Shown: one piece after another, positions 43,384 through 59,907 of the stretch
Layout of the letters: each line of letters starts with the position of its first letter
How positions within the stretch are numbered: the stretch's first letter is position 1
Assembly (NCBI GenBank): GCA_045863395.1
Contig: BTVJ01000031.1
Coordinates: 20,186 to 84,185, forward strand
Reading direction: 5' to 3'
Length of the DNA: 64,000 nt
Source of the DNA: Myxococcales bacterium
GTDB taxonomy: Bacteria; Myxococcota_A; UBA9042; JABWCM01; BTVJ01
The notes under the pieces: generated by a model
Databases searched by the model: none
The model's input: only the letters and a program-made list of their open reading frames with translations
What the model was told of the DNA's origin: nothing
Translations under genes and position numbers: made by a program

Positions 43384-44232
43384 ATGAAGCGCGCAGTGTT
43401 GCTGGCCAGTACGCTGATCGCCGCACAGGTCGCCGCCTGCACCTCGGAGAGCGGCGCGCCGCTGTTCATCTCCGAGGAGCAGGAGATCGCCGTCGGCCAG
43501 CAGGTCCACGCGGACATCCTGGCCGAGTACGGCGGCGCCTGCGTGGAGCCTGTGTGCCCCGCGGCGCTCCAGCAGTACGTGCAGGGCATCGGCCAGGCCA
43601 TCGTGGCGAAGTCCACGCGGAGCAAGCTGAAGTTCACCTTCACGATCCTGCACACGGACCAGATCAACGCGTTCGCGGCCCCGGGCGGGTTCCTCTACAT
43701 CACGACGGGGCTGATGCGGCAGGCCCACGACAAGTCGGAGATCGTCGGCGTCCTGGGTCACGAGGTGGGCCACGTCACGCTCTACCACGGGGCCAACGCC
43801 ATCCAGCGCAACGCGACGGTGGCGCTCCTGAACGAGCTCTTGCTTGGCAGCGACTCGGCCGCGGGGGAGATCGCCGCCGCGGTGTTCGGCGGCTACGAGG
43901 CCTTCGTGCAGAGCCCGGACCAGGAGCTGGAGGCGGACAGCGAGGGCGTGGTCCTGTCGGCCGCTACGGGCTACACACCCGACGGGCTCGTGGACTTCTT
44001 CGAGGTGCTCGCCGAGCTGAAGAAGGGTCGCGACCCCATCTCCGCTGGCCTCGGGCGCATCCTGAGCACCCACCCGCCGGAGGACAAGCGCATCGCCCAC
44101 GCGAAGAAGGTCATGAAGGCAAACGGCATAGACCCGAACGATCCCGCGCTGGCGGTGGACGGTGAGCCGCCATTCAGCGAGATCCTGGCCATGCTCCCGC
44201 CGCCCAAGGGCGACGCCGGGGGCGACAAGTGA
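43384..44232 (+). CDS. M48-family metallopeptidase lipoprotein
   Basis: Lipobox VAAC; INAFAAPGG, VLGHEVGHV, QELEAD, LSTHPP. Confidence 0.9.
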   Translation: MKRAVLLASTLIAAQVAACTSESGAPLFISEEQEIAVGQQVHADILAEYGGACVEPVCPAALQQYVQGIGQAIVAKSTRSKLKFTFTILHTDQINAFAAPGGFLYITTGLMRQAHDKSEIVGVLGHEVGHVTLYHGANAIQRNATVALLNELLLGSDSAAGEIAAAVFGGYEAFVQSPDQELEADSEGVVLSAATGYTPDGLVDFFEVLAELKKGRDPISAGLGRILSTHPPEDKRIAHAKKVMKANGIDPNDPALAVDGEPPFSEILAMLPPPKGDAGGDK

Positions 44233-44240
44233 GGGCTTCC

Positions 44241-44717
44241 ATGTCTGACGCGATCCTGATCGACGCGGTGCGCCCCGAGGACCGGGAGGTGGTCGCCGAC
44301 CTGTTCCTCGCCGACCTCGACACGGTGCGCGTGCGCAAGACCCGGGCGGAGGTGCTCGCGGTCATCGACTCATTGATCGAAGGGACGCGACCCCATGAGC
44401 TGTTCTGGGCGGCCAGGACGGCCCCCGGCGGGCGGCCTCTTGGCGCGCTGCTGGCGACGGTCGTCACGAGCGTCAAGCACGGCGGACGCGCGCTGTGGCT
44501 CGAGCAGCTCTTCGTGGACGGTTCGGCCCGCCGCATGGGGGCGGGGCGTGCCATGGTCGAGCGCCTCCTGTCCTGGTGCCGTGAGAACGGGGTCGTGGGC
44601 ATCGACCTGGAGAGCTACCAGCTCAACGCTCCCGCCTCCTGCCTGTACCGCTCCCTCGGCTTCCGGCGCCTGGGCCGCGAGCGCTTCACCATCGACCTCA
44701 CCGCGACGGACGCATGA
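44241..44717 (+). CDS. GNAT-family N-acetyltransferase
   Basis: LEQLFVDGSARRMGAGRAM (acetyl-CoA motif A); NAPASCLYRSLGF. Confidence 0.85.
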   Translation: MSDAILIDAVRPEDREVVADLFLADLDTVRVRKTRAEVLAVIDSLIEGTRPHELFWAARTAPGGRPLGALLATVVTSVKHGGRALWLEQLFVDGSARRMGAGRAMVERLLSWCRENGVVGIDLESYQLNAPASCLYRSLGFRRLGRERFTIDLTATDA

Positions 44718-46039
44718 CACAGAACCTGGCCCTTGGATCCCTGTGCGCGCTCTTCCTCACAGCCTGCGCCTCCTCCGATGACGGCACCGCCCCCTCGGGC
44801 AGCGACGCCGGGGCCGACGCCGCGGCGGGCGAGCTCGCCGGCTTCGAGCTCATCGTCCCCCAGTCCCTGGTCGAGGGGCGGCCCTTCGCGATGACCGTGC
44901 GCGCCCAGTCGACGCTCGGGGGGACGCTCACCACCTGGAGCGGCAACGTCGCGCTGTCGGCGAGCCGCGGCGCCATCGAACCTGCCCAGGTGAGCGTCAG
45001 TGGCGGCGAGGTCACGGTCCAGGCAACGCTGAGCCGGGAGGGCACCGTGACCATCACGCTGACCGGCGGGGGCACGAGCTCCTCGGCGACGCCGGACGTC
45101 AGCGCCATGCGCTGGGTCCGTGACCCCGCCCAGGACGCGGTGGCCAAGGCAGGCGGCGTCGGCTCCTGGCGCTATGCCGGGTGGCGGGGCGCGAGCGTGG
45201 CGACCTCAGATGGCGGGCTCGTCGCGGCCTTCGCCACGGGCGCCACCCTGACGGACGGCATCGGAGACGTCATCGGGATCGCGACCTCCCCCGACGGGCT
45301 CACGTGGACGGTCGACCCGGAGGAGCCCGTGCTCATGCCCGCCGACTTCGGCGCAAACGGCCTCGCGAACCCCCACCTCGTTCGCGCGCCGGACGGGACC
45401 TGGCACCTGTGGCTGGAGACCCTCACCGGCGATGCGGGCAGCGCCGTCCATGGGATCCGCCACGCGACCAGCACGGACGGGCGCCACTTCACGCCATCGG
45501 GCTGCCCCTTGTTCGGCGCGCAGGCCTTCGGAGACTGGACGTCGGCCGGCGTTGGAGCGCCCGCCGCCATCAGCCGCGAAGACGGCAGCTTCGCGCTCTG
45601 GTTCACCGCCTGGCACCAGGAGGTGGACGGCCTCGTGACCCGCATCGGCCGCACCGAGGGCCTCGTCGGAGCCACGTGCGAGGCGTCCTGGACGACGGCG
45701 TCCATCGTCGTGGAGCGGGGCGCCAAGCAGACCTGGAGCTCGTTCCGGGTCTCCTCGCCCCATGTGTGGCAGGATGCGAACGTCTGGCGCATGCTCTACG
45801 TGGGGACCTCGCGGATCGACTCCGCGCCGTCGCTGGGCTACGCCACCAGCGCCGATGGCCTCGCTTGGGAGGTGAGCCCGAGCAACCCGGTGCTCGTCCA
45901 CAGCTTGTGGGATGGCCAGGGCGTGCAGTCACCGTCCGTCGCCATCCTCGGAGACACGCCGGCCCTGTTCTTCGAGGGCCTGGCCGCCATCGACAAGCGC
46001 TCGCGACTGGGCCGGGCGGTGCCCGAGCAGGCCCCGTGA
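44714..46039 (+). CDS. Lipoprotein with an Ig-like domain and a five-bladed glycoside-hydrolase-like propeller
   Basis: Lipobox LTAC; Asp-box-like IGIATSPDGLTW, HATSTDGRHF and LGYATSADGLAW…NPVL. Confidence 0.7.
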   Translation: MTQNLALGSLCALFLTACASSDDGTAPSGSDAGADAAAGELAGFELIVPQSLVEGRPFAMTVRAQSTLGGTLTTWSGNVALSASRGAIEPAQVSVSGGEVTVQATLSREGTVTITLTGGGTSSSATPDVSAMRWVRDPAQDAVAKAGGVGSWRYAGWRGASVATSDGGLVAAFATGATLTDGIGDVIGIATSPDGLTWTVDPEEPVLMPADFGANGLANPHLVRAPDGTWHLWLETLTGDAGSAVHGIRHATSTDGRHFTPSGCPLFGAQAFGDWTSAGVGAPAAISREDGSFALWFTAWHQEVDGLVTRIGRTEGLVGATCEASWTTASIVVERGAKQTWSSFRVSSPHVWQDANVWRMLYVGTSRIDSAPSLGYATSADGLAWEVSPSNPVLVHSLWDGQGVQSPSVAILGDTPALFFEGLAAIDKRSRLGRAVPEQAP

Positions 46040-46205
46040 GCGCGGGGACGATCCAGCGATCCGTGGGGTCCCGCCGGGCTCAGTGGCGTTTGACAGATCC
46101 GCCGGGTTGGCGCTAAAACTGGCCAGCCCCTCACCCCGCGGCCACTGCCGGCGCCCTTCGGCGCGAGCTCCTGCGCCCGGGGTGCGTGCCCGCAGGAGGA
46201 ACGAC

Positions 46206-47141
46206 ATGAGCCCGAGGCGACCGATGAGGGTGGCGATGGCCGCGCTGCTGCTGTGTCTGGGCGTGGTGCCCGGCGCGTCGGCGGCCAGGCGCCCGAAGCT
46301 GCCGAAGGTGGTGACACCCGTCGAGTACTGCGACGAGCAGGAGTTCGGCACGCGGGGCGAGGCGGAGGACCCGGGCATCTTCCCGCTGGAGCGGACGGGG
46401 CTGCGCTTCGATCCCATGTCTCCCCCCGACTATGCGACAGAGCTCGACGACTCGGACATGGTGCCCTTCCATGTGACCGTCGTGAACGGCACCGACGAGC
46501 CCTCGGATGCCATCCTGGAGATCAACATCTGCGGGGCGCAAGAGGAGTGCATGAGCGTCGGGGCGGACCTCTGGGAGGCGCCCCCCTACATGAGGCTCCT
46601 GCCCGGCGAGCGCCGCAGCGTCGTGGTCTGGACCCCCGACCCGGTCACCCTGGGCTCCCACCGGGTGGCCATCTCGCTCCTCGACGGCGACAACAACGGC
46701 GCCGACTTCTTCTTCGGGCCCTTCCTGAAGGTGGGCAAGGCGGAGGTGCGCATCGGCGCCGTCTCGGCCGACGGCCAGGCGGTCAAGGCGCGGGGGGCGA
46801 CCCAGGTGCGCATGAACGACCCGCAGAAGGGCGTGGAGCTGAGCGTGGACGTCTCCAACCAGGGCTTCGCCCCGACGGCCCTCTACGCGGTCTTCTCCAT
46901 CTACGTGAACCGCACCTGCATGGACGAGGTGTACGCGCCCACGAAGCTCACGGAGGCCACGCGCACCAAGGACTTCGTGGTGGAGCCGCGCCGGGTCGAG
47001 GGCGGCGAGGAGGGCGTGGCCATCAGGGGTCTCTGGAGCCGCAGCAACATCGTCGGCGACCACATCATGACGGTGCAGGTCTTCGACGAGACGGGCGAGA
47101 AGCTGCACGAGCAGCGGGGCATCCGCATGGTCGTGAGGTAG
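46206..47141 (+). CDS. Secreted hypothetical protein (two beta-sandwich-like domains)
   Basis: AGGAGGA RBS; signal peptide (…GASA|A); typical high-GC3 coding frame. Confidence 0.65.
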   Translation: MSPRRPMRVAMAALLLCLGVVPGASAARRPKLPKVVTPVEYCDEQEFGTRGEAEDPGIFPLERTGLRFDPMSPPDYATELDDSDMVPFHVTVVNGTDEPSDAILEINICGAQEECMSVGADLWEAPPYMRLLPGERRSVVVWTPDPVTLGSHRVAISLLDGDNNGADFFFGPFLKVGKAEVRIGAVSADGQAVKARGATQVRMNDPQKGVELSVDVSNQGFAPTALYAVFSIYVNRTCMDEVYAPTKLTEATRTKDFVVEPRRVEGGEEGVAIRGLWSRSNIVGDHIMTVQVFDETGEKLHEQRGIRMVVR

Positions 47142-48898: not shown

Positions 48899-49588
48899 TC
48901 AAGGCTCCGCCCGCGCGAGCATCCCGTTCAGCCAGCGGTGGAGCGGCGCTAGGCGCTCGTAGCGCTCGAAGCACCAGTCGACCAGGGCGGGGCTGTGCAG
49001 CTCGGCTGGGACCGCCTGCTCCACCGCCGCGTACAGGCCGCCGTGGCGCAGCAGGGCCGCGTGGGGGTGGTCCTTCGCGAAGCCCTGCGGGACCCGGGCG
49101 AAGGTCTGGCCCCCGAGGCGCGCGCCGGCGGCCTCGATGCGCGCCGCGATCTCGGCCAGCTCCTCTCCAGCGTCATCCACCGCAGCCCGGTAGGCGAGGA
49201 GCAGGGGCTTGCTGAACTCGTACATGCCGACGCCCAGCATCAGGGACGACGGCTCCAGGTGGAAGTAGAAGCCCGAGCACTCCATGCGTGGGCGGGCGCC
49301 CTCCCAGAGCCACAGGCCCAGGTTGGTCTTGTAGGGGGTCTTGTCCTTGCTGAAGCGGGTGTCCCGGTAGATGCGGAACAGGGACTGGTTCATGCGGCCG
49401 TCCGCGATGATGCCCGGCGCGACGGCCAGCAGGCGCTCGCCCAGCGCCTCGACGAAGGCGCGGGCCGGCTCGAGGACGTCCGCCTGGTAGCGCGCCTTGT
49501 TCGCCTCGAACCAGGAGCGCTCGTTGTGGGCCGCCAGCTCCTGGAAGAACGTGACGGTCCCCGTGGGGAACCCAGAAAACGTGGCCAT
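48899..49588 (-). CDS. DUF2461 (TIGR02453-like) protein
   Basis: FFQELAAHNERSWFEANK, LFRIYRDTRFSKDKTPYKT, GFYFHL, RVPQGF…HP…LLR. Confidence 0.9.
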   Translation of the reverse strand: MATFSGFPTGTVTFFQELAAHNERSWFEANKARYQADVLEPARAFVEALGERLLAVAPGIIADGRMNQSLFRIYRDTRFSKDKTPYKTNLGLWLWEGARPRMECSGFYFHLEPSSLMLGVGMYEFSKPLLLAYRAAVDDAGEELAEIAARIEAAGARLGGQTFARVPQGFAKDHPHAALLRHGGLYAAVEQAVPAELHSPALVDWCFERYERLAPLHRWLNGMLARAEP

Positions 49589-49755
49589 GACTCCTCCGCC
49601 GTGGGTGGTGAGCCCGAGTGTCGGCGCGGTGGGGGTGCGCGTCAAGGGGGCTTCGAAACCGCGCGCGCCATATGTGCTTGACAGGGATGGGCGCTGAGGC
49701 GGACGGTCGAGGGTGCCCCCCGCCGTGCCGGCGAAGGTGGGCAGAGGAGGTCACC

Positions 49756-51468
49756 ATGCACGTCGTCCGTTCGTCCGAGGAGACCCGCCGTCGCGTCGAC
49801 GCCAACGGCTGGAGGCCACGCAACTGTGTGTGGGAGCTGACCCTCGCCTGCAACCTGCGATGCGCCCACTGCGGCTCGGTCGCCGGCCGGGCGCGCGCGC
49901 GGGAGCTGGGGACGGCGGACTGCCTGCGCATCGTCGACGAGCTCGGCGACCTGGGCTGCGAGCTGGTGACGCTCTCGGGCGGGGAGCCCACGCTGCGCCG
50001 GGACTGGGACACCATCGCGGCCGCCATCTCCGCGCGGGGCATGCTCGTCAACATGGTGACCAACGGCGTGACGCGCGACGAGGCCGCCGCCCGGTCCATC
50101 GCGCGGCGCGCCCTGGACGCCGGGATGTGCAACCTGGGGGTCAGCGTCGACGGCCCGCGCGAGATCCACGACACCATGCGGGGGGCCGGCACCTGGGACC
50201 GGACCATGGCGAGCATCGGGGCCTTCGTCGGAGAGGGGATGCGCGTGTCGGTCCTGACCACGGTCACCAAGGCGAACCTGAGCCACCTGGCGGCGATCAG
50301 GTCGCTGGCGCTCGCGGCGGGGGCTTCCCAGTGGCGCGTCCAGCTCGGCAAGCCCATGGGGAGCATGGCCGAGCAGCGGGAGCTGCTGCTCGATCCGGAC
50401 GACCTGCTCGTCCTGATCCCGGAGCTGGCCCGCCTGGCGCGGCTCCGCGGCATCACGGTGCGGGTGGGGGACTCCATCGGGTACTACGGCCCCCACGACA
50501 AGGTGCTGCGCGGCACCGGCTGGCGCGGCCGCAAGGAGTGCTGGAGGGGCTGCCAGGCGGGGATGCAGGCCATCGGGATCCAGGCGGACGGGACGGTCAA
50601 GGGGTGCCTGTCGCTCCAGGCGCGGTGGGGAGACCGGGACCCCTTCGTGGAGGGGAGCCTCGCGGAGGCCTCCCTCGCGGACATCTGGTACGGCGCGGGG
50701 GCCTTCGCGTACAACCGGGAGCACCGCCCCGAGGACCTGACGGGCGCGTGCGCGGCGTGCAAGTACGGGCGCCTGTGCCGGGGCGGAGCCCGGTGCGTGT
50801 CGGCGGCGGTCGCGCAGACCGTGACCGAGGACCCGTACTGCTGGACGCGGGTGGCCGGTGAGCAGGCGCCCGGGCGCTGGGTCACCGCAGGGGGTGCGGC
50901 CCTGGCCGTGATCGTGGCGCTTGCTGGGTGCCCGGACACCGGCTCCGCCGCGGACACGACGGTGGCGACGGACACGGCGGACGTGGGGCAGGCTACGGAC
51001 GCGGTGGCGGACGGCGGCGGTGATGGCGGCGGTGACGGCGGGGCGAGCGACGCCGGCCATGACACGGCCGCCCAGCCGGAGTACGGGGTGTCCCCCGACG
51101 CCTGGCCCTCGGGCGACGTCTCGGACGCCTCTGGCGTGAGCGACCTCGGCGACGTCGTGGACGCGGCAGCGCAGCCGGAGTACGGGGTCTGGCCCGACGT
51201 GACCGAGGTGGAGTGTCCAGGCTGGGAAGGAGACACGGAGGACGTGACGCCCGGCCACGACGCCGAGCCGGACGGCGCGCTGGACGCGGCGGACGCGCCC
51301 ACCGACGTGTCGCCGGACGCCATCGACTGCGAGGCGGTGTGCTGCGAGTGCGAGTACGGCATCATCCCCGACGACGTCTGGGACCAGTGCTGCAAGCCCG
51401 ACCCATGCGCCAACGTCTGCTGCGACTGCGACTACGGCGACCCGCCGCCGCCGGAGTGCTGCAAGTAG
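49756..51468 (+). CDS. Radical SAM/SPASM enzyme (PlpX/splicease-like) fused to a lipoprotein-like tail with repeated [E/D]YG motifs
   Basis: GAGGAGG RBS; VWELTLACNLRCAHCGS (CxxxCxxC), SGGEP, TNG, VSVDG; SPASM region GDSIGYYGP…WRGCQAG…IQADGTVKGC…CAACKYGRLCRGG…DPYC; then hydrophobic segment plus LAGC, acidic linker, QPEYGV x2, CECEYG, CDCDYG. Confidence 0.85.
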   Translation: MHVVRSSEETRRRVDANGWRPRNCVWELTLACNLRCAHCGSVAGRARARELGTADCLRIVDELGDLGCELVTLSGGEPTLRRDWDTIAAAISARGMLVNMVTNGVTRDEAAARSIARRALDAGMCNLGVSVDGPREIHDTMRGAGTWDRTMASIGAFVGEGMRVSVLTTVTKANLSHLAAIRSLALAAGASQWRVQLGKPMGSMAEQRELLLDPDDLLVLIPELARLARLRGITVRVGDSIGYYGPHDKVLRGTGWRGRKECWRGCQAGMQAIGIQADGTVKGCLSLQARWGDRDPFVEGSLAEASLADIWYGAGAFAYNREHRPEDLTGACAACKYGRLCRGGARCVSAAVAQTVTEDPYCWTRVAGEQAPGRWVTAGGAALAVIVALAGCPDTGSAADTTVATDTADVGQATDAVADGGGDGGGDGGASDAGHDTAAQPEYGVSPDAWPSGDVSDASGVSDLGDVVDAAAQPEYGVWPDVTEVECPGWEGDTEDVTPGHDAEPDGALDAADAPTDVSPDAIDCEAVCCECEYGIIPDDVWDQCCKPDPCANVCCDCDYGDPPPPECCK

Positions 51469-51610
51469 CGAGGGCAGACCCCACCCGCCCCCGGGCCTGG
51501 TTCAGCTCCTCCCGTCCAAGGGCAGACTCACTCACGTTCGATGAGCAGGAACACACGCACCGTGGCGGCACGGCCGGGGACCGACTCAGGCGGCCGTGGG
51601 CTCCCGCAGG

Positions 51611-51650
51611 GACCAGCGGGGACCAGCGGGGACCAGCGGGGACTCGCGGG
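51611..51650. repeat. 10-bp intergenic tandem repeat GACCAGCGGG x3 plus one degenerate copy
   Basis: gaccagcggg at 51611, 51621 and 51631; gactcgcggg at 51641. Confidence 0.75.
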
Positions 51651-51708
51651 CGCCAGCGTCGACAGCTCGCGGGACCGGCGCCATGGTAGTCGGAAGAGGA
51701 GGTGGACC

Positions 51709-52272
51709 ATGCCGCAGACAGCGCGAAAGAGGGGAGTGAGCTTCGAGGAGTACCTGGCAGGGGAGGAGGTCGCGGATCTCAAGCACGAGCTCATCGACGG
51801 GGAGGTCTACGCGATGACCGGGGCGATGCTGCGGCACGTCGCGGTCACGGGGAACATCCAGGTGGCGCTCCGCCTGGCCCTCCGCGGAGGACGCTGCCGC
51901 GTGTACGCGTCGGACGCCATGGTGCGGACGCCCGAGGACGCCGCCTTCTACCCGGACGTCGTCGTCACACGCAGCGAGCGAGACACGCACCCGCGCATCG
52001 TCGCCCATCCGTCCCTGGTCGTCGAGGTGCTCAGCGAGGGGACGGGCGCCTATGACCGGGGCCTGAAGTTCGAGCGCTACCGCGCGATCCCGACCCTCGA
52101 GGAGTACGTCGTCGTCGACCCGGACCGCGTCGCCGTGGACGTCCACAGGCGCGGTGAGTCGGGCCTCTGGGTGCTCCACCCCTTCCGCGACGGCGACACG
52201 GTGGAGCTCACGAGCGTCGGCGTCAGCCTCCCCATCTCCGCGGTCTACGAGGACGCGGGCGCGCCGGAGTAG
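51709..52272 (+). CDS. Uma2-family (PD-(D/E)xK) endonuclease
   Basis: FEEYL…KHELIDGEVYAMTG, FYPDVVV, PSLVVEVLS…YDRGLKFERY…EYVVVDP; GAGGAGG RBS. Confidence 0.9.
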   Translation: MPQTARKRGVSFEEYLAGEEVADLKHELIDGEVYAMTGAMLRHVAVTGNIQVALRLALRGGRCRVYASDAMVRTPEDAAFYPDVVVTRSERDTHPRIVAHPSLVVEVLSEGTGAYDRGLKFERYRAIPTLEEYVVVDPDRVAVDVHRRGESGLWVLHPFRDGDTVELTSVGVSLPISAVYEDAGAPE

Positions 52273-52459
52273 CCTCGCCTCTCACGGCCATCCCGCAGGA
52301 ACCCGCGCCCCCCGGCACGGCGGCGACGACCAGGGAGGGGTCCCCGGTCTGTCGATCCACGGCGCCAATGGGCTTGACCAGGGCCGCAGAGACCACGGCG
52401 GCGGCCGATGATCTCCGGACAACCCCGAGCAGACGCGCTCACCTCCACTCACTGTGTCG

Positions 52460-52489
52460 TTGACGTCGCCGAGTCGTTCGAACCATAAT
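52460..52489 (+). promoter_or_regulatory. Putative sigma70 promoter for the DUF4041 operon
   Basis: TTGACG, 18-bp spacer, CATAAT. Confidence 0.5.
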
Positions 52490-52534
52490 TCCAGGGGTCG
52501 CCCCAACGACACTCCCACGCTGAGGGAATGACGC

Positions 52535-54184
52535 ATGGATCTACTCGCACTCGCCTTTGGAATCGTCGCGGCCGCTTCCACGGTCTATGTCTTCCTTCTC
52601 CGAAAGGAGCTTCTTCGCGTTCGGAGCGAGCTTGAGCCCCTCAGGAAGTATGAGGTGGTCCGCAATGCGGAGGAGCGCGCACGACAAGTCATCGAAGAGG
52701 CGACGACGCGCGCGGCCGACGAGACTCGCCGTGCTCGCGCGGCGGCCGATCAGCTCATCGTTGAAGCTCAGACACGCAAGAGCGCGGCCGAACGGGACGC
52801 TGGCAGACTCATGGCCGAGGCGGAACAGCGGGCGAGGCACCTGATCGACGATGCCGCTGAGAGGTCGAAAGACGAGATTCAGCGGGCCCGACTCAGGGCC
52901 GAGCAGCTTGGGGCGGAGGCCCAGAGGCAGGTTGCGGCTGCCCGCGCCGACGCGAACCGCATCATCGACGAGGCGAACGTCAAGGCACGGGAGATCGCGG
53001 GAGACGCGATGGACGCCCTCGGTCGCGTCCGGGAGCTGGAACGGACCGCCTCGGCTCTGAAGAATGTCATCGAAGGATACGGCGACCAGTACCTGATACC
53101 GACCCACTCCCTCCTCGACGAGCTGGCCGAGGAGTTTGGCTTCACGGAGGCTGGGCAGGAGCTGAAACGGGCGCGCGACCGGGTCCGCGCCATGGTCAAG
53201 AGCAAACAGACCGCGACCTGTGACTACGTGGAGGCGGTGCGGCGCGACACAGCCATCGCATTCGTTACGGACGCCTTCAACGGCAAGGTCGACACCATCC
53301 TTGCCAGGGCGAAGAACGACAACTTCGGTACACTGCGCCAGGAGATCCTGGACGCATTCACCCTGGTGAACACGAACGGGGCGGCCTTCCGCGACGCCCG
53401 AATCCTCCCCGAGTTCCGCGATGCGCGCATCGACGAGCTGCGGTGGGCCACGGTCGCCCAGGAGCTGAAGCTGAAGGAGCGCGAGGAGCAGCGCGCGATC
53501 AAGGAGCACCTGCGTGAGGAGGAGCGCGCGCAGCGTGAGTTCGAGCGCGCGCTCAAGGAGGCCGCGAAGGAGGAGGAGCTCCTGAAGAAGGCCATGGAGA
53601 AGGTCCAGAAGCAGGTCGCCACCGCGACCGCAGAGGAGCGGGCGCGGTTCGAGGCCCAACTCCAGGACCTGAATCAGAAGCTCGCCGACGCGGAGGCCAG
53701 GTCGCAGCGGGCTCTCTCGATGGCTCAACAGACGAAGTCCGGGCATGTGTACGTAATCTCGAACATCGGGTCCTTCGGAGAGCACGTCTACAAGATCGGG
53801 ATGACGCGGCGACTCGAGCCACAGGATCGCGTGCGGGAGCTCGGCGATGCGAGCGTGCCATTCGAGTTCGATGTACACGCCTTGATCTACAGTGACGACG
53901 CGCCCCGCCTCGAGCGCGACCTGCACAGACGGTTTCTCCGGACCCAGGTCAACAAGGTGAACCCGCGCAAGGAGTTCTTCAGGGTCCCCATCGCCGCAAT
54001 CCGAAGCGAGCTCGATGGGCTCGGAATGAACACGTCATGGACAATGACTGCGGCGGCGCGGGAGTACCGCGAGACCCTGGCCATCGAGGCGGCCATGGAG
54101 AAGAACGAGTTCGACGAGTCCCGGTGGGCGGAGAGCCAGGTGGAGGCGATGGAGGCCGAGGTCCTGGAAGCGGTCGAAGCCTGA
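52535..54184 (+). CDS. Membrane-anchored DUF4041 plus T5orf172/GIY-YIG nuclease (SNIPE/PD-lambda-1-like anti-phage protein)
   Basis: N-terminal TM, long coiled coil, AFNGKVD…EREEQR (DUF4041-like), GHVYVISNIGSFGEHVYKIGMTRR…ELGDASVPFEFDVHA…VNPRKEFFR. Confidence 0.85.
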   Translation: MDLLALAFGIVAAASTVYVFLLRKELLRVRSELEPLRKYEVVRNAEERARQVIEEATTRAADETRRARAAADQLIVEAQTRKSAAERDAGRLMAEAEQRARHLIDDAAERSKDEIQRARLRAEQLGAEAQRQVAAARADANRIIDEANVKAREIAGDAMDALGRVRELERTASALKNVIEGYGDQYLIPTHSLLDELAEEFGFTEAGQELKRARDRVRAMVKSKQTATCDYVEAVRRDTAIAFVTDAFNGKVDTILARAKNDNFGTLRQEILDAFTLVNTNGAAFRDARILPEFRDARIDELRWATVAQELKLKEREEQRAIKEHLREEERAQREFERALKEAAKEEELLKKAMEKVQKQVATATAEERARFEAQLQDLNQKLADAEARSQRALSMAQQTKSGHVYVISNIGSFGEHVYKIGMTRRLEPQDRVRELGDASVPFEFDVHALIYSDDAPRLERDLHRRFLRTQVNKVNPRKEFFRVPIAAIRSELDGLGMNTSWTMTAAAREYRETLAIEAAMEKNEFDESRWAESQVEAMEAEVLEAVEA

Positions 54185-54212
54185 TCCCACGAACTTCACA
54201 CGGAGACTGCTC

Positions 54213-55181
54213 ATGAGCCTCAACAGGACACTCAGGGCGCTGGCGGCCGCGAGTCGGCGAGCAGAGAGGGAGTCGGCCCGCCGATATCGAGAGCGCGAGC
54301 GGAACATGAGGGAGTCCGCCAAGCTGGCCGAGAAGGACAGAGCACGGCATGAGGTCGAGCTTCACGACGCGCTCATCGAGACCCTCGTCTCCGTCCACAA
54401 GGACTGCTCGGATCCCATTGATTGGAAGAGTCTGCGAGACGCAGCGGCACCCGCCCTGCCGGACCGAAGCTCCAAGAACGAGGATGGGGCACGAATCGAG
54501 CTCGAAGGGTACAGACCCGGGCTGTTCACCAGGTTGTTCGGTCTCACGGCCCGACAGAGAGCGAAGCTGGAGGCCGCGATCACCGAGGGGCGAGCAATGG
54601 ACGACGCGGCCTACCGTGCGGCCTGCGCCGCCCATGACGAGCAGCGCGCCGAGTGGCAGGAGCAGCGCGACCTCGCCGCGAGAGTTCTGGCGGGCGACCT
54701 CGACGCCTACGTGACGGTCATTCAGGAGATGAACCCGTTTGCGGAGATTGCAGGTCTGGGGTCGTCGGTGTCCTTCTCGTCGGATGAGGCGACGATGATT
54801 GAGGCGACGGTGCGTGTGAACACCGACCGCGTCGTTCCAGCCGAGTCCAAGAGCCTGCTCGCGAGCGGGAAGCTGTCCGTCAAGGCGATGACGCCAGCCA
54901 GATTCAACGCAATCTACCAGGACTACGTGTGCGGCGCGGCCCTCCGTGTCGCGCGGGAGCTGCTCGCCATCCTGCCCGTCGAGGCCGTGGACGTGACGGC
55001 CACCGTGGAGGGGCTCGACACGGCCACGGGGCGCAATGACGTGAAGACCATCCTGTCGGTCCAGGTGACTCGCAAGGTCGCAAGCATGATCAACTTCGAG
55101 CTGGCCGACCCGTCGGACTGCATGAAGAACTTCAAGCACAAGATGAAGTTCACCAAGTCGGGCGGGTTCGAGCCCATCTGA
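54213..55181 (+). CDS. Hypothetical protein resembling the non-catalytic N-terminal region of Mrr-associated coiled-coil proteins
   Basis: 28 bp after the DUF4041 gene; IYQDYVCGAALRVARE…DTATG…ILSVQVTR…INFELADPSDC. Confidence 0.65.
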   Translation: MSLNRTLRALAAASRRAERESARRYRERERNMRESAKLAEKDRARHEVELHDALIETLVSVHKDCSDPIDWKSLRDAAAPALPDRSSKNEDGARIELEGYRPGLFTRLFGLTARQRAKLEAAITEGRAMDDAAYRAACAAHDEQRAEWQEQRDLAARVLAGDLDAYVTVIQEMNPFAEIAGLGSSVSFSSDEATMIEATVRVNTDRVVPAESKSLLASGKLSVKAMTPARFNAIYQDYVCGAALRVARELLAILPVEAVDVTATVEGLDTATGRNDVKTILSVQVTRKVASMINFELADPSDCMKNFKHKMKFTKSGGFEPI

Positions 55182-55294
55182 TAGCCGCGCGTAGCGGTTC
55201 CGAGGGTGCTGCCATCAGGCGCCCCGGTGGCGCTCCGCGAAGTGCCTGCTGCGCGGGCCCTCACAGGGGGGGCGCGGACCGTGAGGGCTTCGTT

Positions 55295-55460
55295 CTGGAC
55301 GCCTCGGAAGGGGTCGCGAGCCTTCCGGGGAACCTCCCCGACCCCTCCGGAGGGGTCCCCAGGTCTCCCCTGAAGGCTCCCGACCCCTCGGGGGCACCCC
55401 TCGGGAGGGGTCCGGAGCCCTCCGAGGGCCTCGCGTGGGCCTTGGGGGCTTCCGACCAGG
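55295..55460. repeat. Degenerate palindromic (CCCCTCCGGAGGGG-like) intergenic repeat cluster
   Basis: Perfect 18-bp palindrome GACCCCTCCGGAGGGGTC at 55340-55357; near copies at ~55396-55411 and ~55417-55429; lies between convergent genes. Confidence 0.55.
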
Positions 55461-55499
55461 CGCTCGGACACCTCGGGAGCTGTCGCGCAGTCGGCCCCG

Positions 55500-56270
55500 T
55501 CACGCGGGGGCGGGAGCCTCGGCGGGCGGCTCGGGCGCGGCGTCCGCTGGCGCGGCCGCCCCGGCAGGGTTGTGCGTGGTGAGCGGCAGCAGCAGCGTGT
55601 TCATGACCTCGATGGTCTCGGGCTCGTCGGGCTCGACGCTCGCGACCACCTTCTCCACGTACCGCTTCAGCTCGGTGCGCACCTCGGCGGCGAGCGGCGC
55701 GAGCCTCGCCTCCACGTCCGTCGCGACCATGGCGTCGGTGATCCCCAGGGCGTCGCCGTAGACGGCGTGCAGGCGCCGCAGGGAGTCGAGGAAGAACCCG
55801 CCGTGGAGCGCCTCGAAGTGGGCGGCGAGCCCCTGCTGGTCGGCGACCGTCATGCGCGCCTTCACGGAGGACCACTGGCGCTTGTAGGGGAGATTGACGT
55901 AGCTGAGGCCGTCGGCGAAGAACACGTCGTGGATGGCCTGCGCGTGCGCCTGCCCGGGGTTCTCGGGCTCGTCGAGAAAGAGGTGCGCCTCGGTCCACTG
56001 GCGCATGAGGCTGAGGACCCGATCCAGCCGGCGGTCTGCCAGGTGGGGGACGGGCCCCAGCGTCCCCTTCTTGGGGGTGACCAGCTCCGCGATCATGGCG
56101 CTGAGCGCAGAGAGCGCAGCCTCCAGCCGGGCCAGAGACTTGGCGGCGGACGCCGGAAACCCGGCGGTCGCCTTGGCGGACGTCAGGGTCGCGACCCCGA
56201 TGGCCTCCAGATCGAGAGCGGACGCCCGAGGGAGCTCGGCGAGCTCCCCGGCCTTGTACACCTTCCCCAT
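55500..56270 (-). CDS. Hypothetical helical protein
   Basis: GGAGGG RBS before MGKVY; 256 aa; typical coding bias. Confidence 0.65.
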   Translation of the reverse strand: MGKVYKAGELAELPRASALDLEAIGVATLTSAKATAGFPASAAKSLARLEAALSALSAMIAELVTPKKGTLGPVPHLADRRLDRVLSLMRQWTEAHLFLDEPENPGQAHAQAIHDVFFADGLSYVNLPYKRQWSSVKARMTVADQQGLAAHFEALHGGFFLDSLRRLHAVYGDALGITDAMVATDVEARLAPLAAEVRTELKRYVEKVVASVEPDEPETIEVMNTLLLPLTTHNPAGAAAPADAAPEPPAEAPAPA

Positions 56271-56496
56271 GCTGAGTCCCTCCGTGAGTGGGTGGTCGAG
56301 CGCCGACTGTAACGCCGCAGCAGGAAGGTGGCAAGCTCTGTGATCGAGCCGCAGACTGAGCGCACTTCACCCTCTGACGTTCCGGCGGTCACCCGCGCTT
56401 GCCGGTGCCGCGGGGCGCCTCAGCAGGCCGCCGTCCTTGTGCTCCCGTGCACGCCCGGGCTACGATGCGCCCGTCCGCCCTGGGAGGTCCCCCCGC

Positions 56497-59400
56497 ATGA
56501 GCGACGCACCGGTCTTCGACCCCACGGCCCGGCGCATGCCGGCCGCCACCCTGGAGCGCCTCGCGGCCTTTGCCCGCCAGTGGAGCGGAAAGGAGGGCAC
56601 GGAGCAGCAGCTCTCCCAGTCGTTCCTGAACGGCCTCTGCGACGCGCTCGGCACGCCGCGCCCCTACGCCGGCCAGCACAGCGTCGAGGACTACTGCTTC
56701 GAGAAGCGCGTGGACGTGCCGGACCGGAGCGAGCGCGGCCGCATCGACCTCTACAAGCGCGGCTGCTTCGTGCTGGAGGCCAAGTGCGGCCGCAACACCG
56801 CCGCGTCGCCCGGGTCCGCGCCCGTGCGCGGCGGAAAGCGCTACGTCGAGTACATCCAGAGCGCCTGGCTCGACCAGGCGAAGGTCTACGCGGCCCTGCT
56901 GCCCGAGGGACCGCCCCCGCTGCTCGTGGTCGTCGACGTGGGCTACCACTTCTGGATCTGGCGCGGCACCGACGGGCGCTTCGACGCGTTCCACAGCCCC
57001 CGGCGCCTCTCGTTCTCCATCGACGCCATCGCCGACGAGGAGAACGCGCGAGTGCTCTGGGCCTGCTTCGAGTCGCCGGGCGATCTCGACCCGTCGCGCG
57101 CCCAGCAGCGCATCACCGAGGACGCCGTCTCGCGCATCGCCCCGCTCGCCGCGCGGCTCGAAGGCCGAGGCCACCCGCCGGAGGACGTCGCCCGCTTCCT
57201 GATGCGCTGCCTGTTCTGCATGTTCGCGGAGGACGTGGGGCTGCTCCCCAGCGGCCACTTCTCCAAGCTCTTGCGGGGCGCGCTCCAGGTGCCCGACGCC
57301 TTCGAGCCCGAGGCCACGCGGCTGTTCGGGGCCATGGACCAGGGGGGCCTGTACGGCTTCGAGAGGATCCGGCGCTTCAACGGCGCCCTGTTCCGCGACG
57401 CCCGCGCCCTGCCGCTGGACCGCGACGCCCTCGGCTTGCTCGCCGGCGCCGCCGCGCTGAACTGGGCCTTCGTCGACCCGGCGATCTTCGGCACGCTGCT
57501 CGAGCGCGCCCTCGACCCCCGCGAGCGCCACCGCCTGGGCGCCCACTACACGCCGCGCGTGTTCGTCGAGCGCATCGTGCGCGCCACCGTCGAGGAGCCG
57601 CTCCGCGCCGAGTGGGACGTGGTGCAGGCCCGCGTCGAGGAGCTGCGGGCCGCGGAGCCCACCGAGACGAAGGCCAACGAGGCCGCGCAGAAGGTGCTGC
57701 TCCCGTTCCTGCGGCGCCTTCATGACGTGCGCGTGCTCGATCCCGCCTGCGGCACCGGCAACTTCCTCTATGTCGCCTACGCCGTGCTCAAGGAGCTGGA
57801 GCACGAGGTGTTGAGCGAGCTCGTGCTGGCCCAGGCGGCGCAGCAGGGCCTCCTGGAGGGCGCGGCGGTGGTCCCGGGCCACATGCTCGGCCTCGAGGTC
57901 AAGCCCTGGGCGGCGGAGATCGCCCAGCTCGTGCTGTGGATAGGCCACCTCCAGTGGGAGCTCCACCACGGGCGCCAGACCACCATCCGTGACCCGGTCC
58001 TGCCCGAGGAGCGGTCCATCGCCTGCTGGGACGCGCTGATCGGCTGGGACCGGGTGGCCGAGCGCCGCGGCCCCGACGGCGCGGTGATCACGCGGTGGGA
58101 CGGCCTGACGACGAAGGTGCACCACGCCACGGGGAGGGAGGTGCCGGACGACACGGCGCGGGTCCCCGTGATGGACTACGACGGCGTGCGCCGGTCCGCC
58201 TGGCCAGCCGCCACCTTCATCGTCGGCAACCCCCCGTTCCTCGGCAACAAGATGATGCGCGAGGCCCTCGGCGACGCCTACGTCGAGGCCGTCCGCGGCT
58301 GCTACGCCGAGGTCGGCAAGACCGTGGACTTCGTGATGTACTGGTGGCACCGCGCCGCGGACGCAGTGCGCGCCGGGCAGACTGAGCGCTTCGGTCTCAT
58401 CACCACCAACAGCATCGCGCAGACCTTCAACCGGCAGGTGGTCGAGGCGCACCTGGCCGCCGAGCCGGGGGTGGGCATCGTGATGGCCGTGCCGGACCAC
58501 CCGTGGGTGGACGCGGGCGCCGACGTGCGCATCGCCATGACCGTGGTGGAGCGCGAGCGCCCGGGCGTGCGCCGCCTGTCGCGCCTCGGCCGCGTGGTGG
58601 ACGAGGCGGGGGCGGTCGACCGCGTGGAGCTGTCCTTCCGCGCCGTGCCGCAGATCCACGCGGACCTGAGCGGCGGCGCCAACGTCGCCGGCGCCGTGGC
58701 GCTGCGGGCCAACGAGGGTCTGTCGTTCCAGGGCATGAACCTGGTGGGCAAGGGCTTCCGCCTCACTCGGGAGCAGGTCGAGGCGCTGGGCTTCGACGTC
58801 GCGGCCCTGCCGCCGATCATCCGGCCCTATCTGAACGCGCGGGAGCTCATGCAGACCCGCGAGGGCCGATTCGTCATCGACGCCTTCGGGCTGACCGAGG
58901 AGGAGCTGCGGGACGCCTGGCCGACCGCGTACCAGTGGCTCAGCGACCATGTGAGGCCGGAGCGGGAGCAGAACCGGCGAGCCTCCCGGCGAGAGCGGTG
59001 GTGGCTGTTTGGGGAGCCCGTCGGGAAGCTGCGGCGGGCCCTCGTCGGCCTAGGGCGCTACATCGCCACCCCCGAGACCTCGAAGCACCGCGTCTTCCAG
59101 TTCCTCGACGCGGCGACCTGCCCGGACCACAAGCTCTACGCGATCCCCCTCGACGACCCGTACCTCCTCGGGGTGCTCTCCGCCCGCGCCCACGTCCTGT
59201 GGTCGCTCGAAGCCGGCGGTCGCCTGGGCGTCGGCAACGACCCGGTCTACAACAACACCCGCTGCTTCCTCACGTACCCCTTCCCCGCCCCGACCGGGGC
59301 CTTGCGCGCCGCCGTGGCGGAGCTGGGCGAGCGCCTCGACGCGCACCGCAAGCAGGCCCAGGCGCGCAGCCCCAAGGCGACGCTGACCGCGATGTACAAC

Positions 59401-59907
59401 CTGCTGGCGAGGCACCGGGCGCGGGAGCCGTTCACGCCGGCAGAGCAGGCGCTCCACGTACAGATCGGGACCGACGAGCTGCTGCGCCTGCACGACGCGC
59501 TGGACCGTGCGGTCCTCGAAGCCTACGGCTGGCCCCCGGACCTGAGCGACGACGACCTGCTCGCGCGCCTGGTCGCCCTGAACGCGGAGCGAGCGGCGGA
59601 GGAGCGGGCGGGCCATGTGCGCTGGCTCAGAGCGCCCGCCACCGAGCCGGCGAGCCAGCCGGCCCTGGCGCTGGAGGAGGAGACGGCGGACGGAGAGGGC
59701 CCGCCCCCCTGGCCGGCAGACCCCCTCGACCAGCTCGCCGACATCCTGGCCCTGCTGCGATCCACGACGACGCCCCTGGACGTGGAGTCGGTCTCCGGCC
59801 GCTTCAAGCGGGCCCCGAGGAAGCGAGTCTCCGACCTGCTGAGCCGCCTGGAGCGACGGCGCCTGCTGGTCGCGGACGACGATGGTCGCTACCGAGTGAT
59901 CGCATAG
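56497..59907 (+). CDS. MmeI-like type IIL restriction-modification enzyme (endonuclease plus N6-adenine methyltransferase plus TRD)
   Basis: GRIDLYKRGCFVLEAK (PD-(D/E)xK), FCMFAEDVGLLP, FNGALF, PAIFGTLLE…LGAHYTPR, VLDPACGTGNFL (motif I), IVGNPPFLG (motif IV), HDALDRAVLEAYGW. Confidence 0.9.
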   Translation: MSDAPVFDPTARRMPAATLERLAAFARQWSGKEGTEQQLSQSFLNGLCDALGTPRPYAGQHSVEDYCFEKRVDVPDRSERGRIDLYKRGCFVLEAKCGRNTAASPGSAPVRGGKRYVEYIQSAWLDQAKVYAALLPEGPPPLLVVVDVGYHFWIWRGTDGRFDAFHSPRRLSFSIDAIADEENARVLWACFESPGDLDPSRAQQRITEDAVSRIAPLAARLEGRGHPPEDVARFLMRCLFCMFAEDVGLLPSGHFSKLLRGALQVPDAFEPEATRLFGAMDQGGLYGFERIRRFNGALFRDARALPLDRDALGLLAGAAALNWAFVDPAIFGTLLERALDPRERHRLGAHYTPRVFVERIVRATVEEPLRAEWDVVQARVEELRAAEPTETKANEAAQKVLLPFLRRLHDVRVLDPACGTGNFLYVAYAVLKELEHEVLSELVLAQAAQQGLLEGAAVVPGHMLGLEVKPWAAEIAQLVLWIGHLQWELHHGRQTTIRDPVLPEERSIACWDALIGWDRVAERRGPDGAVITRWDGLTTKVHHATGREVPDDTARVPVMDYDGVRRSAWPAATFIVGNPPFLGNKMMREALGDAYVEAVRGCYAEVGKTVDFVMYWWHRAADAVRAGQTERFGLITTNSIAQTFNRQVVEAHLAAEPGVGIVMAVPDHPWVDAGADVRIAMTVVERERPGVRRLSRLGRVVDEAGAVDRVELSFRAVPQIHADLSGGANVAGAVALRANEGLSFQGMNLVGKGFRLTREQVEALGFDVAALPPIIRPYLNARELMQTREGRFVIDAFGLTEEELRDAWPTAYQWLSDHVRPEREQNRRASRRERWWLFGEPVGKLRRALVGLGRYIATPETSKHRVFQFLDAATCPDHKLYAIPLDDPYLLGVLSARAHVLWSLEAGGRLGVGNDPVYNNTRCFLTYPFPAPTGALRAAVAELGERLDAHRKQAQARSPKATLTAMYNLLARHRAREPFTPAEQALHVQIGTDELLRLHDALDRAVLEAYGWPPDLSDDDLLARLVALNAERAAEERAGHVRWLRAPATEPASQPALALEEETADGEGPPPWPADPLDQLADILALLRSTTTPLDVESVSGRFKRAPRKRVSDLLSRLERRRLLVADDDGRYRVIA

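Follow-up and report, generated by a model that had tools for sequence, protein, structure and literature searches.

The window analysed here, a stretch of 64,000 nt from a Myxococcales bacterium (contig BTVJ01000031.1, positions 20,186 to 84,185; coordinates below are those of the window), contains a gene in which a radical S-adenosylmethionine (SAM)/SPASM enzyme is joined, in one open reading frame (ORF), to a lipoprotein-type tail carrying four Tyr-Gly (YG) motifs. We found that this one-gene fusion of enzyme and tail is natural and conserved. The tail is very probably the enzyme's own substrate, because a split form has the same tail modules, unfused relatives of the enzyme adjoin YG-repeat proteins, and the motif matches the splice tags of PlpXY. 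The fuller reading, to which we give a probability of about 0.5, is that the enzyme rewrites the tyrosine sites of the tail, most likely by excising tyramine, before the tail would be exported by Sec, lipidated and cleaved at Cys392.

The gene (49756-51468, plus strand) translates into 570 amino acids without an internal stop: a radical SAM/SPASM enzyme, a signal-like segment and an acidic tail follow one another in a single frame, as described in the initial annotation of this DNA, all of whose coordinates were correct on re-checking. An alternative, longer frame begins at GTG 49618; we favour ATG 49756 as the start because homologue alignments begin at about residue 5 to 10. A search of 5.8 billion proteins returned 690 homologues at E ≤ 1e-3, and the tallies given here use the best 120 of these 690. 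The 120 proteins measure 440 to 701 aa, and 103 of them span at least 90% of the query. The expectation that homologues would keep both the fusion and the YG tail was borne out: in 119 of the 120 listed, one or more YG follow the hydrophobic segment, and only P0112 departs from this, ending in an unrelated C-terminus. Within the phylum, a fused orthologue (E ≤ 1e-100) is present in 29 of 401 sampled genomes, with open frames of 501 to 1182 aa and a patchy distribution, for example in 10 of 19 genomes of one family and 5 of 6 of another.

The junction itself is equally well covered. The stretch was found in sequencing runs of 7 studies, with wastewater and sludge among the kinds of sample. A 9,912-nt DNA contig from another study covers 49500-51638 without gaps and with 3 substitutions; a second DNA contig, from a different study, covers 49879-51700; and a 1,819-nt contig from a metatranscriptome library covers 49744-51562, gap-free, with 8 substitutions. 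Strain differences inside the ORF amount to 8, of which 5 are synonymous and 3 conservative (D215E, T498A, A527S). The contigs of these other studies show no indel, stop or difference between 50709 and 51234, and both the two DNA contigs and the RNA-library contig cross cleanly the point at which a lost stop or a frameshift had to be considered. One frame is kept across hundreds of independent assemblies, and the sole split form that we found has the order substrate then enzyme, opposite to that of the fusion. With these observations against it, an artificial joining of two genes by a lost stop codon, a frameshift or mis-assembly is vanishingly improbable. The RNA-library contig extends from 12 nt 5' of the ATG to 94 nt 3' of the stop. 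It hints at a single-gene transcript, but weakly, since a contig gives no information on the ends of a transcript and such libraries may contain DNA.

The tail of the window protein contains exactly four tyrosines, and all four stand in [DE]YG (E442-Y-G, 51079; E475-Y-G, 51178; E533-Y-G, 51352; D559-Y-G, 51430), in agreement with the initial annotation, which had taken the YG motifs to hold the only tyrosines of the tail. When the tail was shuffled 200,000 times, no shuffle yielded at least four [DE]YG. The same restriction holds for the family: among 682 tail tyrosines in the 120 listed homologues, 560 are YG, including 550 [DE]YG, and a further 21 are YA, 17 of these [DE]YA. Most of the remaining tyrosines replace the Trp of the Cys-rich module's '...VW..CC'. 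The sites lie either in simple repeats of the QP[ED]YG[VI]xPD family or in Cys-rich modules (Table 1). Per homologue there are between none and over 10 simple repeats, and between none and 4 Cys modules; some homologues have repeats only and some modules only, and Y-G-[VIL]-x-P stays throughout (YA in a few). The residue before the Tyr is Ala, Pro or Leu in some fused homologues (L054, L056). The Pro-x-Tyr-Gly-[LVI]-Pro context of the tail sites matches the tags spliced by PlpXY, which have Pro-x-Tyr-Gly-Leu/Val-Pro/Val contexts (PMC10533398).

The Cys-rich modules are strongly constrained around their tyrosines. In module 1, P538 is invariant and C525, C530, C532, Y534, G535, C545 and C546 are nearly so; in module 2, C551, C555, C556, C558, D559, Y560, G561, P564, P565, C568 and C569 are nearly invariant. 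An alignment of 16 module sequences has 21 invariant columns. The tail had no match in Pfam or NCBIfam at E ≤ 10, and a comparison with the ESM Atlas gave no lead (its best feature score was 0.76, and structure TM did not exceed 0.25). In a fused homologue of 1,107 aa (L022, 478-3801, minus strand), a variant module, CxC.PCC..C[DE]YG...CGP...EW..CCEGPYP, alternates with thrombospondin type-3 calcium-binding repeats, a pairing that fits export of the tail.

The first 365 or so residues form a complete radical SAM plus SPASM enzyme, as had been read from the sequence: the CxxxCxxC motif and seven SPASM cysteines are conserved. Across 106 aligned homologues, six of the SPASM cysteines are invariant and the seventh, C335, nearly so; the domain ends at DPYCW (C362, about nt 50841). 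Pfam PF04055 matches aa 27-176 (E=4e-22, 79.4 bits against a gathering cut-off of 29.5), which places the protein in the radical SAM superfamily. The Pfam SPASM model (PF13186) is annotated on many homologues and is unreported for the window protein at E ≤ 0.01; the conserved seven-Cys C-terminal region and a fold like that of PqqE, SuiB, CteB and anSME assign the enzyme to the SPASM subgroup. A full-length AlphaFold2 model built on 106 sequences has a mean predicted local distance difference test score (pLDDT) of 78.3 and a predicted template modelling score (pTM) of 0.70, with the enzyme mostly above 90. The top Foldseek matches to the enzyme are PqqE, SuiB, SkfB, CteB and anSME, and no solved splicease structure is among the matches listed. 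For models of PlpA, PcpA and RhaA, the Tyr of a YG site is reported to lie beside the 5'-carbon of SAM.

The best NCBIfam model is TIGR03913 (252.2 bits against a cut-off of 591.75; aa 15-369 align to profile positions 12-359 of 477), followed by TIGR04103, the PlpX type (243.5 against 725), TIGR04133 (149.2 against 425) and AhbD (131 bits). The initial annotation had assigned the enzyme to the clade of PlpX, the GDL-associated maturases and the radical SAM enzymes with a lipoprotein. These three models are indeed the best ones, and so the affinity stands, but membership does not, since all three scores fall below their cut-offs.

Unfused relatives of the enzyme, about 36-44% identical to it, are encoded directly downstream of proteins that combine a zinc ribbon, a membrane segment and xYGxPP repeats (for example at loci L031-L035, L061, L064, L067 and L071). 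In these proteins the zinc ribbon is followed by a hydrophobic segment ending in Gly/Ala-Cys and by an acidic tail with x-Y-G-x-P-P repeats, and every Tyr is a YG; the stop of the zinc-ribbon gene and the start of the enzyme gene often overlap. Among 14 loci chosen by a TIGR03913 search, 8 have a YG protein or small YG precursors beside the enzyme, and in the remaining 6 a crude ORF filter showed no YG protein. The zinc-ribbon-type enzymes score 463-514 bits on TIGR03913 and TIGR04103. Recognized by TIGR03913 at E ≤ 1e-120, they occur in 74 of the 401 sampled genomes of the phylum and not in the host genome; no protein in the 401 genomes exceeds the TIGR03913 cut-off.

Other arrangements were seen around these relatives. 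At L037, YG-bearing small repeat precursors (1406-1597 and 6124-6432; units ...PPPYAPGTxYGLVxRxNLR) flank two tandem radical SAM genes. At L058 (201-1386, plus strand), a TIGR03913-like enzyme has three small genes in tandem (111-132 aa) upstream of it. Each of their products combines a signal-like segment with a single YG site and a helical, conserved C-terminal part, a third substrate design. Just upstream of an unfused relative at L027 (1038-2744, plus strand), a protein of 568 aa has acidic double-disulfide repeats (NF033662, 308 bits) interleaved with QP-x-Y-Ala/Met/Gly-x-P, an interleaving that would set the target site between folded extracellular repeats. L028 (2971-6423) and L029 (347-3743) each have a tandem pair of splicease-like radical SAM genes with a sulfatase-family gene after it, and no YG protein was seen near these two pairs.

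A split form of the fused gene also exists. A profile of the C-terminal double module, searched against 1.84 billion representatives, matched only 23 proteins, and most of the 16 unfamiliar ones that were read are fused proteins, whole or with the N-terminal part cut off. One protein of 193 aa (P0125) stands alone: it opens with a canonical lipoprotein signal at the N-terminus (two Lys, then a hydrophobic stretch and LVGC) and continues with three modules and the terminal module. In a metagenomic locus (L080) its gene (6001-6591) is followed, after a 25-nt gap, by a radical SAM gene in its own right (6616-7605), which runs into the end of the contig. Its product is 48% identical to the window enzyme domain, 65% to the corresponding domain of the fused homologue P0134 and 36% to a zinc-ribbon-type relative. 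Twenty-one loci were found with P0125, of which 16 are fused, 1 is split and 4 are not assignable; of the 16, 8 show one intact frame, 5 are cut by the contig start with the SPASM end in frame, and 3 have a radical SAM motif at the right distance upstream. Conserved X-Tyr-Gly sites, as in spliceotide systems, are genetically tied to the enzyme in fused, split and zinc-ribbon arrangements.

Relationships among the enzymes were examined in quick maximum likelihood runs with IQ-TREE, supported only by the Shimodaira-Hasegawa-like approximate likelihood ratio test (SH-aLRT). A first tree, built from 60 enzyme domains, groups the 29 fused enzymes in a single clade (SH-aLRT 99) and 17 TIGR03913-like enzymes in another (100); these two clades and a group from L027, L030 and L039 join at 91. 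Because the tree holds no validated splicease, a place inside the splicease clade would rest on profile scores only. When the split-form enzyme was added, it fell in a basal polytomy and the fused clade stayed whole (SH-aLRT 92). A position of the split-form enzyme inside the fused clade was not supported.

Between enzyme and tail, the hydrophobic segment with the lipobox LAGC was located where it had been predicted: R374 directly precedes an uncharged stretch, W375-G391, and the codon of Cys392 occupies nt 50929-50931. This Cys is invariant in 106 of 106 homologues, and 102 of them have Gly, Ala or Ser just before it, at position -1. Across the same 106 sequences, the uncharged stretch has a median length of 17 aa and a mean hydropathy of 1.5 and is rich in Ala; judged by its sequence, it looks more like a signal peptide than like a stable membrane helix. 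The window protein is modelled here as a helix (376-388) with a pLDDT of about 54. In 83 of 106 homologues the 15 residues ahead of the stretch carry a net positive charge, and the tails of the family contain 22.9% Asp plus Glu against 2.3% Lys plus Arg; this positive flank, together with the acidic, Lys/Arg-poor tail, fits an N-in, C-out orientation. The +1 Cys expected of a lipoprotein is invariant, but the signal-like segment is internal rather than N-terminal, whereas the signal of the split homologue is canonical and N-terminal. The segment and its Cys correspond to this true N-terminal lipoprotein signal. The host genome contains lspA, and an lgt-like gene, below the cut-off, adjoins it.

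We propose the following route for the fused protein. In the cytoplasm, the target of the enzyme domain would be the YG tyrosines in its own tail or in that of a sister molecule. The likeliest reaction is of the splicease type: spliceases excise a tyramine equivalent at XYG sites (PMC11414181), and such an excision would remove C8H9NO (135.07 Da) and leave an alpha-keto-beta-amide in the tail. The moderately hydrophobic, Ala-rich segment would then carry the acidic tail over the inner membrane via Sec, post-translationally. Cys392 would be lipidated and signal peptidase II would cut before it, freeing a modified, disulfide-rich lipoprotein and leaving the enzyme behind. The enzyme would in effect stand in for the leader of a peptide that is ribosomally synthesized and then post-translationally modified (a RiPP), and the lipoprotein pathway would provide both 'leader peptidase' and exporter. 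The zinc-ribbon systems suggest that the enzyme takes hold of its substrate by the cytoplasmic head before the signal, a place that the enzyme itself occupies in the fused form. A more far-reaching version is possible, though we hold it to be doubtful: the whole folded enzyme would serve as the 'leader', splicing several tyrosines of its own tail before the internal signal exports the tail and signal peptidase II discards the enzyme after about one round. The product would then be anchored in the outer membrane, knotted by disulfides and equipped with several alpha-keto-beta-Asp/Glu electrophiles.

A number of observations weigh against this route. On the side of export, the strict lipobox [LVI][ASTVI][GAS]C is found in only 25 of 106 homologues (a loose one in 90), and a lipoprotein signal acting behind a folded domain of 370 aa has, to our knowledge, no precedent. 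If the segment were targeted during translation, the tail would exit the cytoplasm before the enzyme could act. On the side of the chemistry, the enzyme reaches only about one-third of the cut-offs of both splicease-type models; because its best models are of the splicease type but are matched at this level, we regard it as a relative of the spliceases and not as a member. Its identity to even the nearest unfused relatives is 36-44%, and the reaction may therefore have drifted. The sites themselves depart from published ones: the residue before the Tyr is nearly always Asp or Glu, and a DYG site in RcsA is not spliced by its own splicease (PMC11626197). One sub-clade has [DE]YA in place of YG, and more distant unfused pairs (L027, L039) carry Pro-x-Tyr-Ala/Met/Val repeats, both outside the published XYG rule. 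Finally, residues 395-514, which include both simple EYG repeats, have a pLDDT below 50; with these repeats modelled as disordered, the model says nothing on their docking. The last 50 residues reach 73-89 in the full-length model, against a mean of 58.3 when the C-terminal module is folded alone with a 16-sequence alignment, a gap that, since the alignments differ in depth, is no evidence that the module depends on the enzyme. A complex prediction for aa 1-372 and aa 515-570 with SAM and three 4Fe-4S clusters scored 0.00, a value obtained without controls that speaks neither for nor against binding.

Some of this evidence would also suit an enzyme with the same architecture and the same YG target that carries out another radical SAM reaction and forms no ketoamide, such as a Tyr cross-link or cyclophane, a thioether from the flanking Cys, hydroxylation or epimerization. 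Besides the scores far under the splicease cut-offs and the unspliced DYG of RcsA, this view can draw on the nearest solved folds, which are those of cross-linking or oxidizing SPASM enzymes, on the embedding of the module Tyr in CC-x-C-[DE]-Y-G, and on the relatives with YA, YM and YV variants. However, simple repeats free of Cys still keep [DE]YG-x-P, so a chemistry shared by both kinds of site cannot need Cys; the two splicease-type families score well ahead of all others; and the motif context equals that of proven splice tags (PMC10533398). On balance we consider a different reaction rather unlikely. A further view leaves the tail no role as substrate at all: it would be a membrane anchor with an extracytoplasmic disulfide-rich or metal-binding domain, placing or regulating an enzyme that acts on another protein, a lipid or a small molecule. 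The Cys-rich modules could well be structural, given the pLDDT of the C-terminal module in the full-length model, and no conserved partner gene lies nearby. Yet enzymes of this lineage are tied to YG proteins in three arrangements, Tyr is almost confined to YG, and tails without any Cys module still keep their YG repeats, all of which make a tail that is not a substrate highly improbable.

The real substrate could also be a separate lipoprotein precursor, made alongside the full-length protein, translated from an in-frame internal GTG (V366, nt 50851) and modified in trans. Such a start would yield a textbook precursor with a short charged N-region, a hydrophobic stretch and LAGC; a database protein of 175 aa (P0121) begins exactly at the equivalent point; and the split form shows that a stand-alone precursor occurs in nature. 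Against this, the Shine-Dalgarno-like element upstream of V366 is weak (just GGA), and homologues do not keep a potential start codon at this point. P0121 comes from a contig of 1675 nt and may be a truncated gene call. Moreover, the 5.8 billion proteins include just 2 tail-like proteins of 112-359 aa, one a fragment and the other the ambiguous P0121. We therefore judge an internal start to be improbable and retain in-cis or sister-molecule modification of the fused tail, with tyramine excision as the likeliest chemistry, as the preferred reading.

The surroundings of the gene show no other partner for the enzyme. The initial annotation had noted that no separate precursor and no PqqD or RiPP recognition element (RRE) gene is adjacent, and this was upheld: the neighbours encode a DUF2461 protein on the minus strand and a Uma2 endonuclease on the plus strand (Table 1). 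Neither the fused protein nor its neighbours gave a PqqD/RRE match, and the separate Y protein of type I spliceotide systems was accordingly not seen. Across the window and 11 orthologous loci there is no conserved neighbour gene, and no RRE, protease or transporter; the host genome has no stand-alone paralogue of the tail, the next match being at E=0.02. A run of defence-type genes follows 3' of the fused gene (51541-59907). Upstream, between 43384 and 47141, lie genes for an M48-peptidase lipoprotein (43384-44232) and for a GNAT acetyltransferase. Two further proteins of this interval have no Pfam match (44714-46039 and 45912-47141), and the first of these two has a lipoprotein-type signal and an Asp/Ala/Gly-rich linker resembling the linker of the fused tail. 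In two genomes of one family, secA adjoins the fused gene together with a Wzy_C/TPR gene (L015, 2937-5714; L016, 8170-11007); we read this adjacency as shared gene order, though it is notable for the question of export.

Table 1. Features of the fused gene and of its surroundings in the 64,000-nt window.
Feature	Position	Strand	Basis or remark
Whole fused gene	49756..51468	+	570 aa plus stop; single open frame
Radical SAM/SPASM enzyme domain, aa 1-365, predicted cytoplasmic	49756..50850	+	TIGR03913/TIGR04103 scores below cut-off; AlphaFold2 pLDDT mostly >90; Foldseek
Radical SAM cluster motif CxxxCxxC (C32, C36, C39)	49849..49872	+	Invariant in 106/106 aligned homologues
SPASM region, seven cysteines	50551..50841	+	C266, C284, C332, C335, C341, C347, C362
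Internal signal-peptide-like segment W375-G391 and lipobox-like LAGC, Cys392	50878..50931	+	Alignment conservation; split form
Acidic Asp/Ala/Thr/Gly-rich linker, aa 393-437	50932..51066	+	Sequence; pLDDT <50
Simple repeat 1, AAQPEYGVSPD (Y443)	51067..51099	+	Sequence; QP[ED]YG[VI]xPD repeat family
Simple repeat 2, AAQPEYGVWPD (Y476)	51166..51198	+	Sequence; QP[ED]YG[VI]xPD repeat family
Cys-rich module 1, C-x3-CC-x-C-EYG-x9-CC (C525-C546, Y534)	51328..51393	+	Conserved columns
Cys-rich terminal module 2, C-x3-CC-x-C-DYG-xPPPPx-CC (C551-C569, Y560)	51406..51462	+	Conserved columns
DUF2461 gene	48899-49645	-	Neighbour of fused gene
Uma2 gene	51541-52272	+	Neighbour of fused gene; Uma2 endonuclease
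DUF4041/T5orf172/MUG113 protein	52535-54184		Defence-type run
MmeI-like restriction-modification enzyme, 1,156 aa	56437-59907		Defence-type run

If the more far-reaching version holds, the gene would represent the first natural fusion of a splicease with its substrate and the first lipoprotein signal working behind a domain of about 370 aa, and the spliceotide natural product would be a cell-surface protein rather than a secreted peptide. Our full-text literature searches found no description of a natural fusion of a splicease-type enzyme with its substrate, nor of zinc-ribbon or lipoprotein YG substrates; Scott et al. 2022 (Chem 8:2659), reportedly a catalogue of 939 predicted splicease systems, lay with its supplements outside those searches and may describe the fused type. 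Within the phylum, the fused form and the zinc-ribbon-type enzyme occur in 29 and 74 of the 401 sampled genomes, respectively. It also raises the questions of how a cytoplasmic, oxygen-sensitive enzyme modifies a protein bound for export and of whether a lipoprotein signal works internally. According to a 2022 review, native splicease products had not then been isolated from their producers (PMC9811515). Because the product is here predicted from one gene as a lipid-anchored envelope protein, it can be sought directly. For protein engineering, an enzyme naturally fused to its substrate would offer a splicing cassette in a single gene.

The closest known systems are the tyramine spliceases (PlpX-PlpY-PlpA, PcpXYA, RhaX-RhaA, RcsX and RasX; TIGR04103). 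They share with the fused protein a radical SAM/SPASM enzyme and repeated X-Tyr-Gly sites in a Pro-x-Tyr-Gly-[LVI]-Pro context, and the binary types among them need no Y protein or RRE (PMC11414181), neither of which was found for the fused gene. Unlike in these systems, substrate and enzyme here form one polypeptide, a leader helix is not apparent, Asp or Glu takes the X position, the reaction is a predicted one, and the substrate would be an exported lipoprotein-type protein of about 180 aa instead of a Nif11/NHLP-type peptide. The GDL motif peptide-associated maturases (TIGR03913) differ in about 120 C-terminal profile positions that the window enzyme does not match. TIGR04133, the radical SAM/SPASM enzymes 'with lipoprotein', is similar as the third-best model, but the window enzyme scores 149 bits against 425 and the tail matches no NCBIfam or Pfam model. 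The myxobacterial zinc-ribbon systems come from the same phylum, and their substrates follow the same plan: a head in the cytoplasm leads into a hydrophobic segment that ends in Gly/Ala-Cys, behind which lies an acidic tail whose tyrosines are all YG. These systems differ in having separate genes for enzyme and substrate, the zinc ribbon occupying the enzyme's place. In borosins of the OphMA type, a modifying enzyme likewise carries and modifies its own C-terminal core peptide (PMC7878506), but that enzyme is a methyltransferase instead of a radical SAM protein, and no export signal lies between enzyme and core. Finally, engineered proteins in which a leader or activator is fused C-terminally to RhaX or PlpX (RhaX-RhaA leader, PlpX-PlpY) are active (PMC11414181). 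These fusions are man-made and join the enzyme to a leader or activator, not to its substrate; the fused gene of the window would be their natural counterpart.

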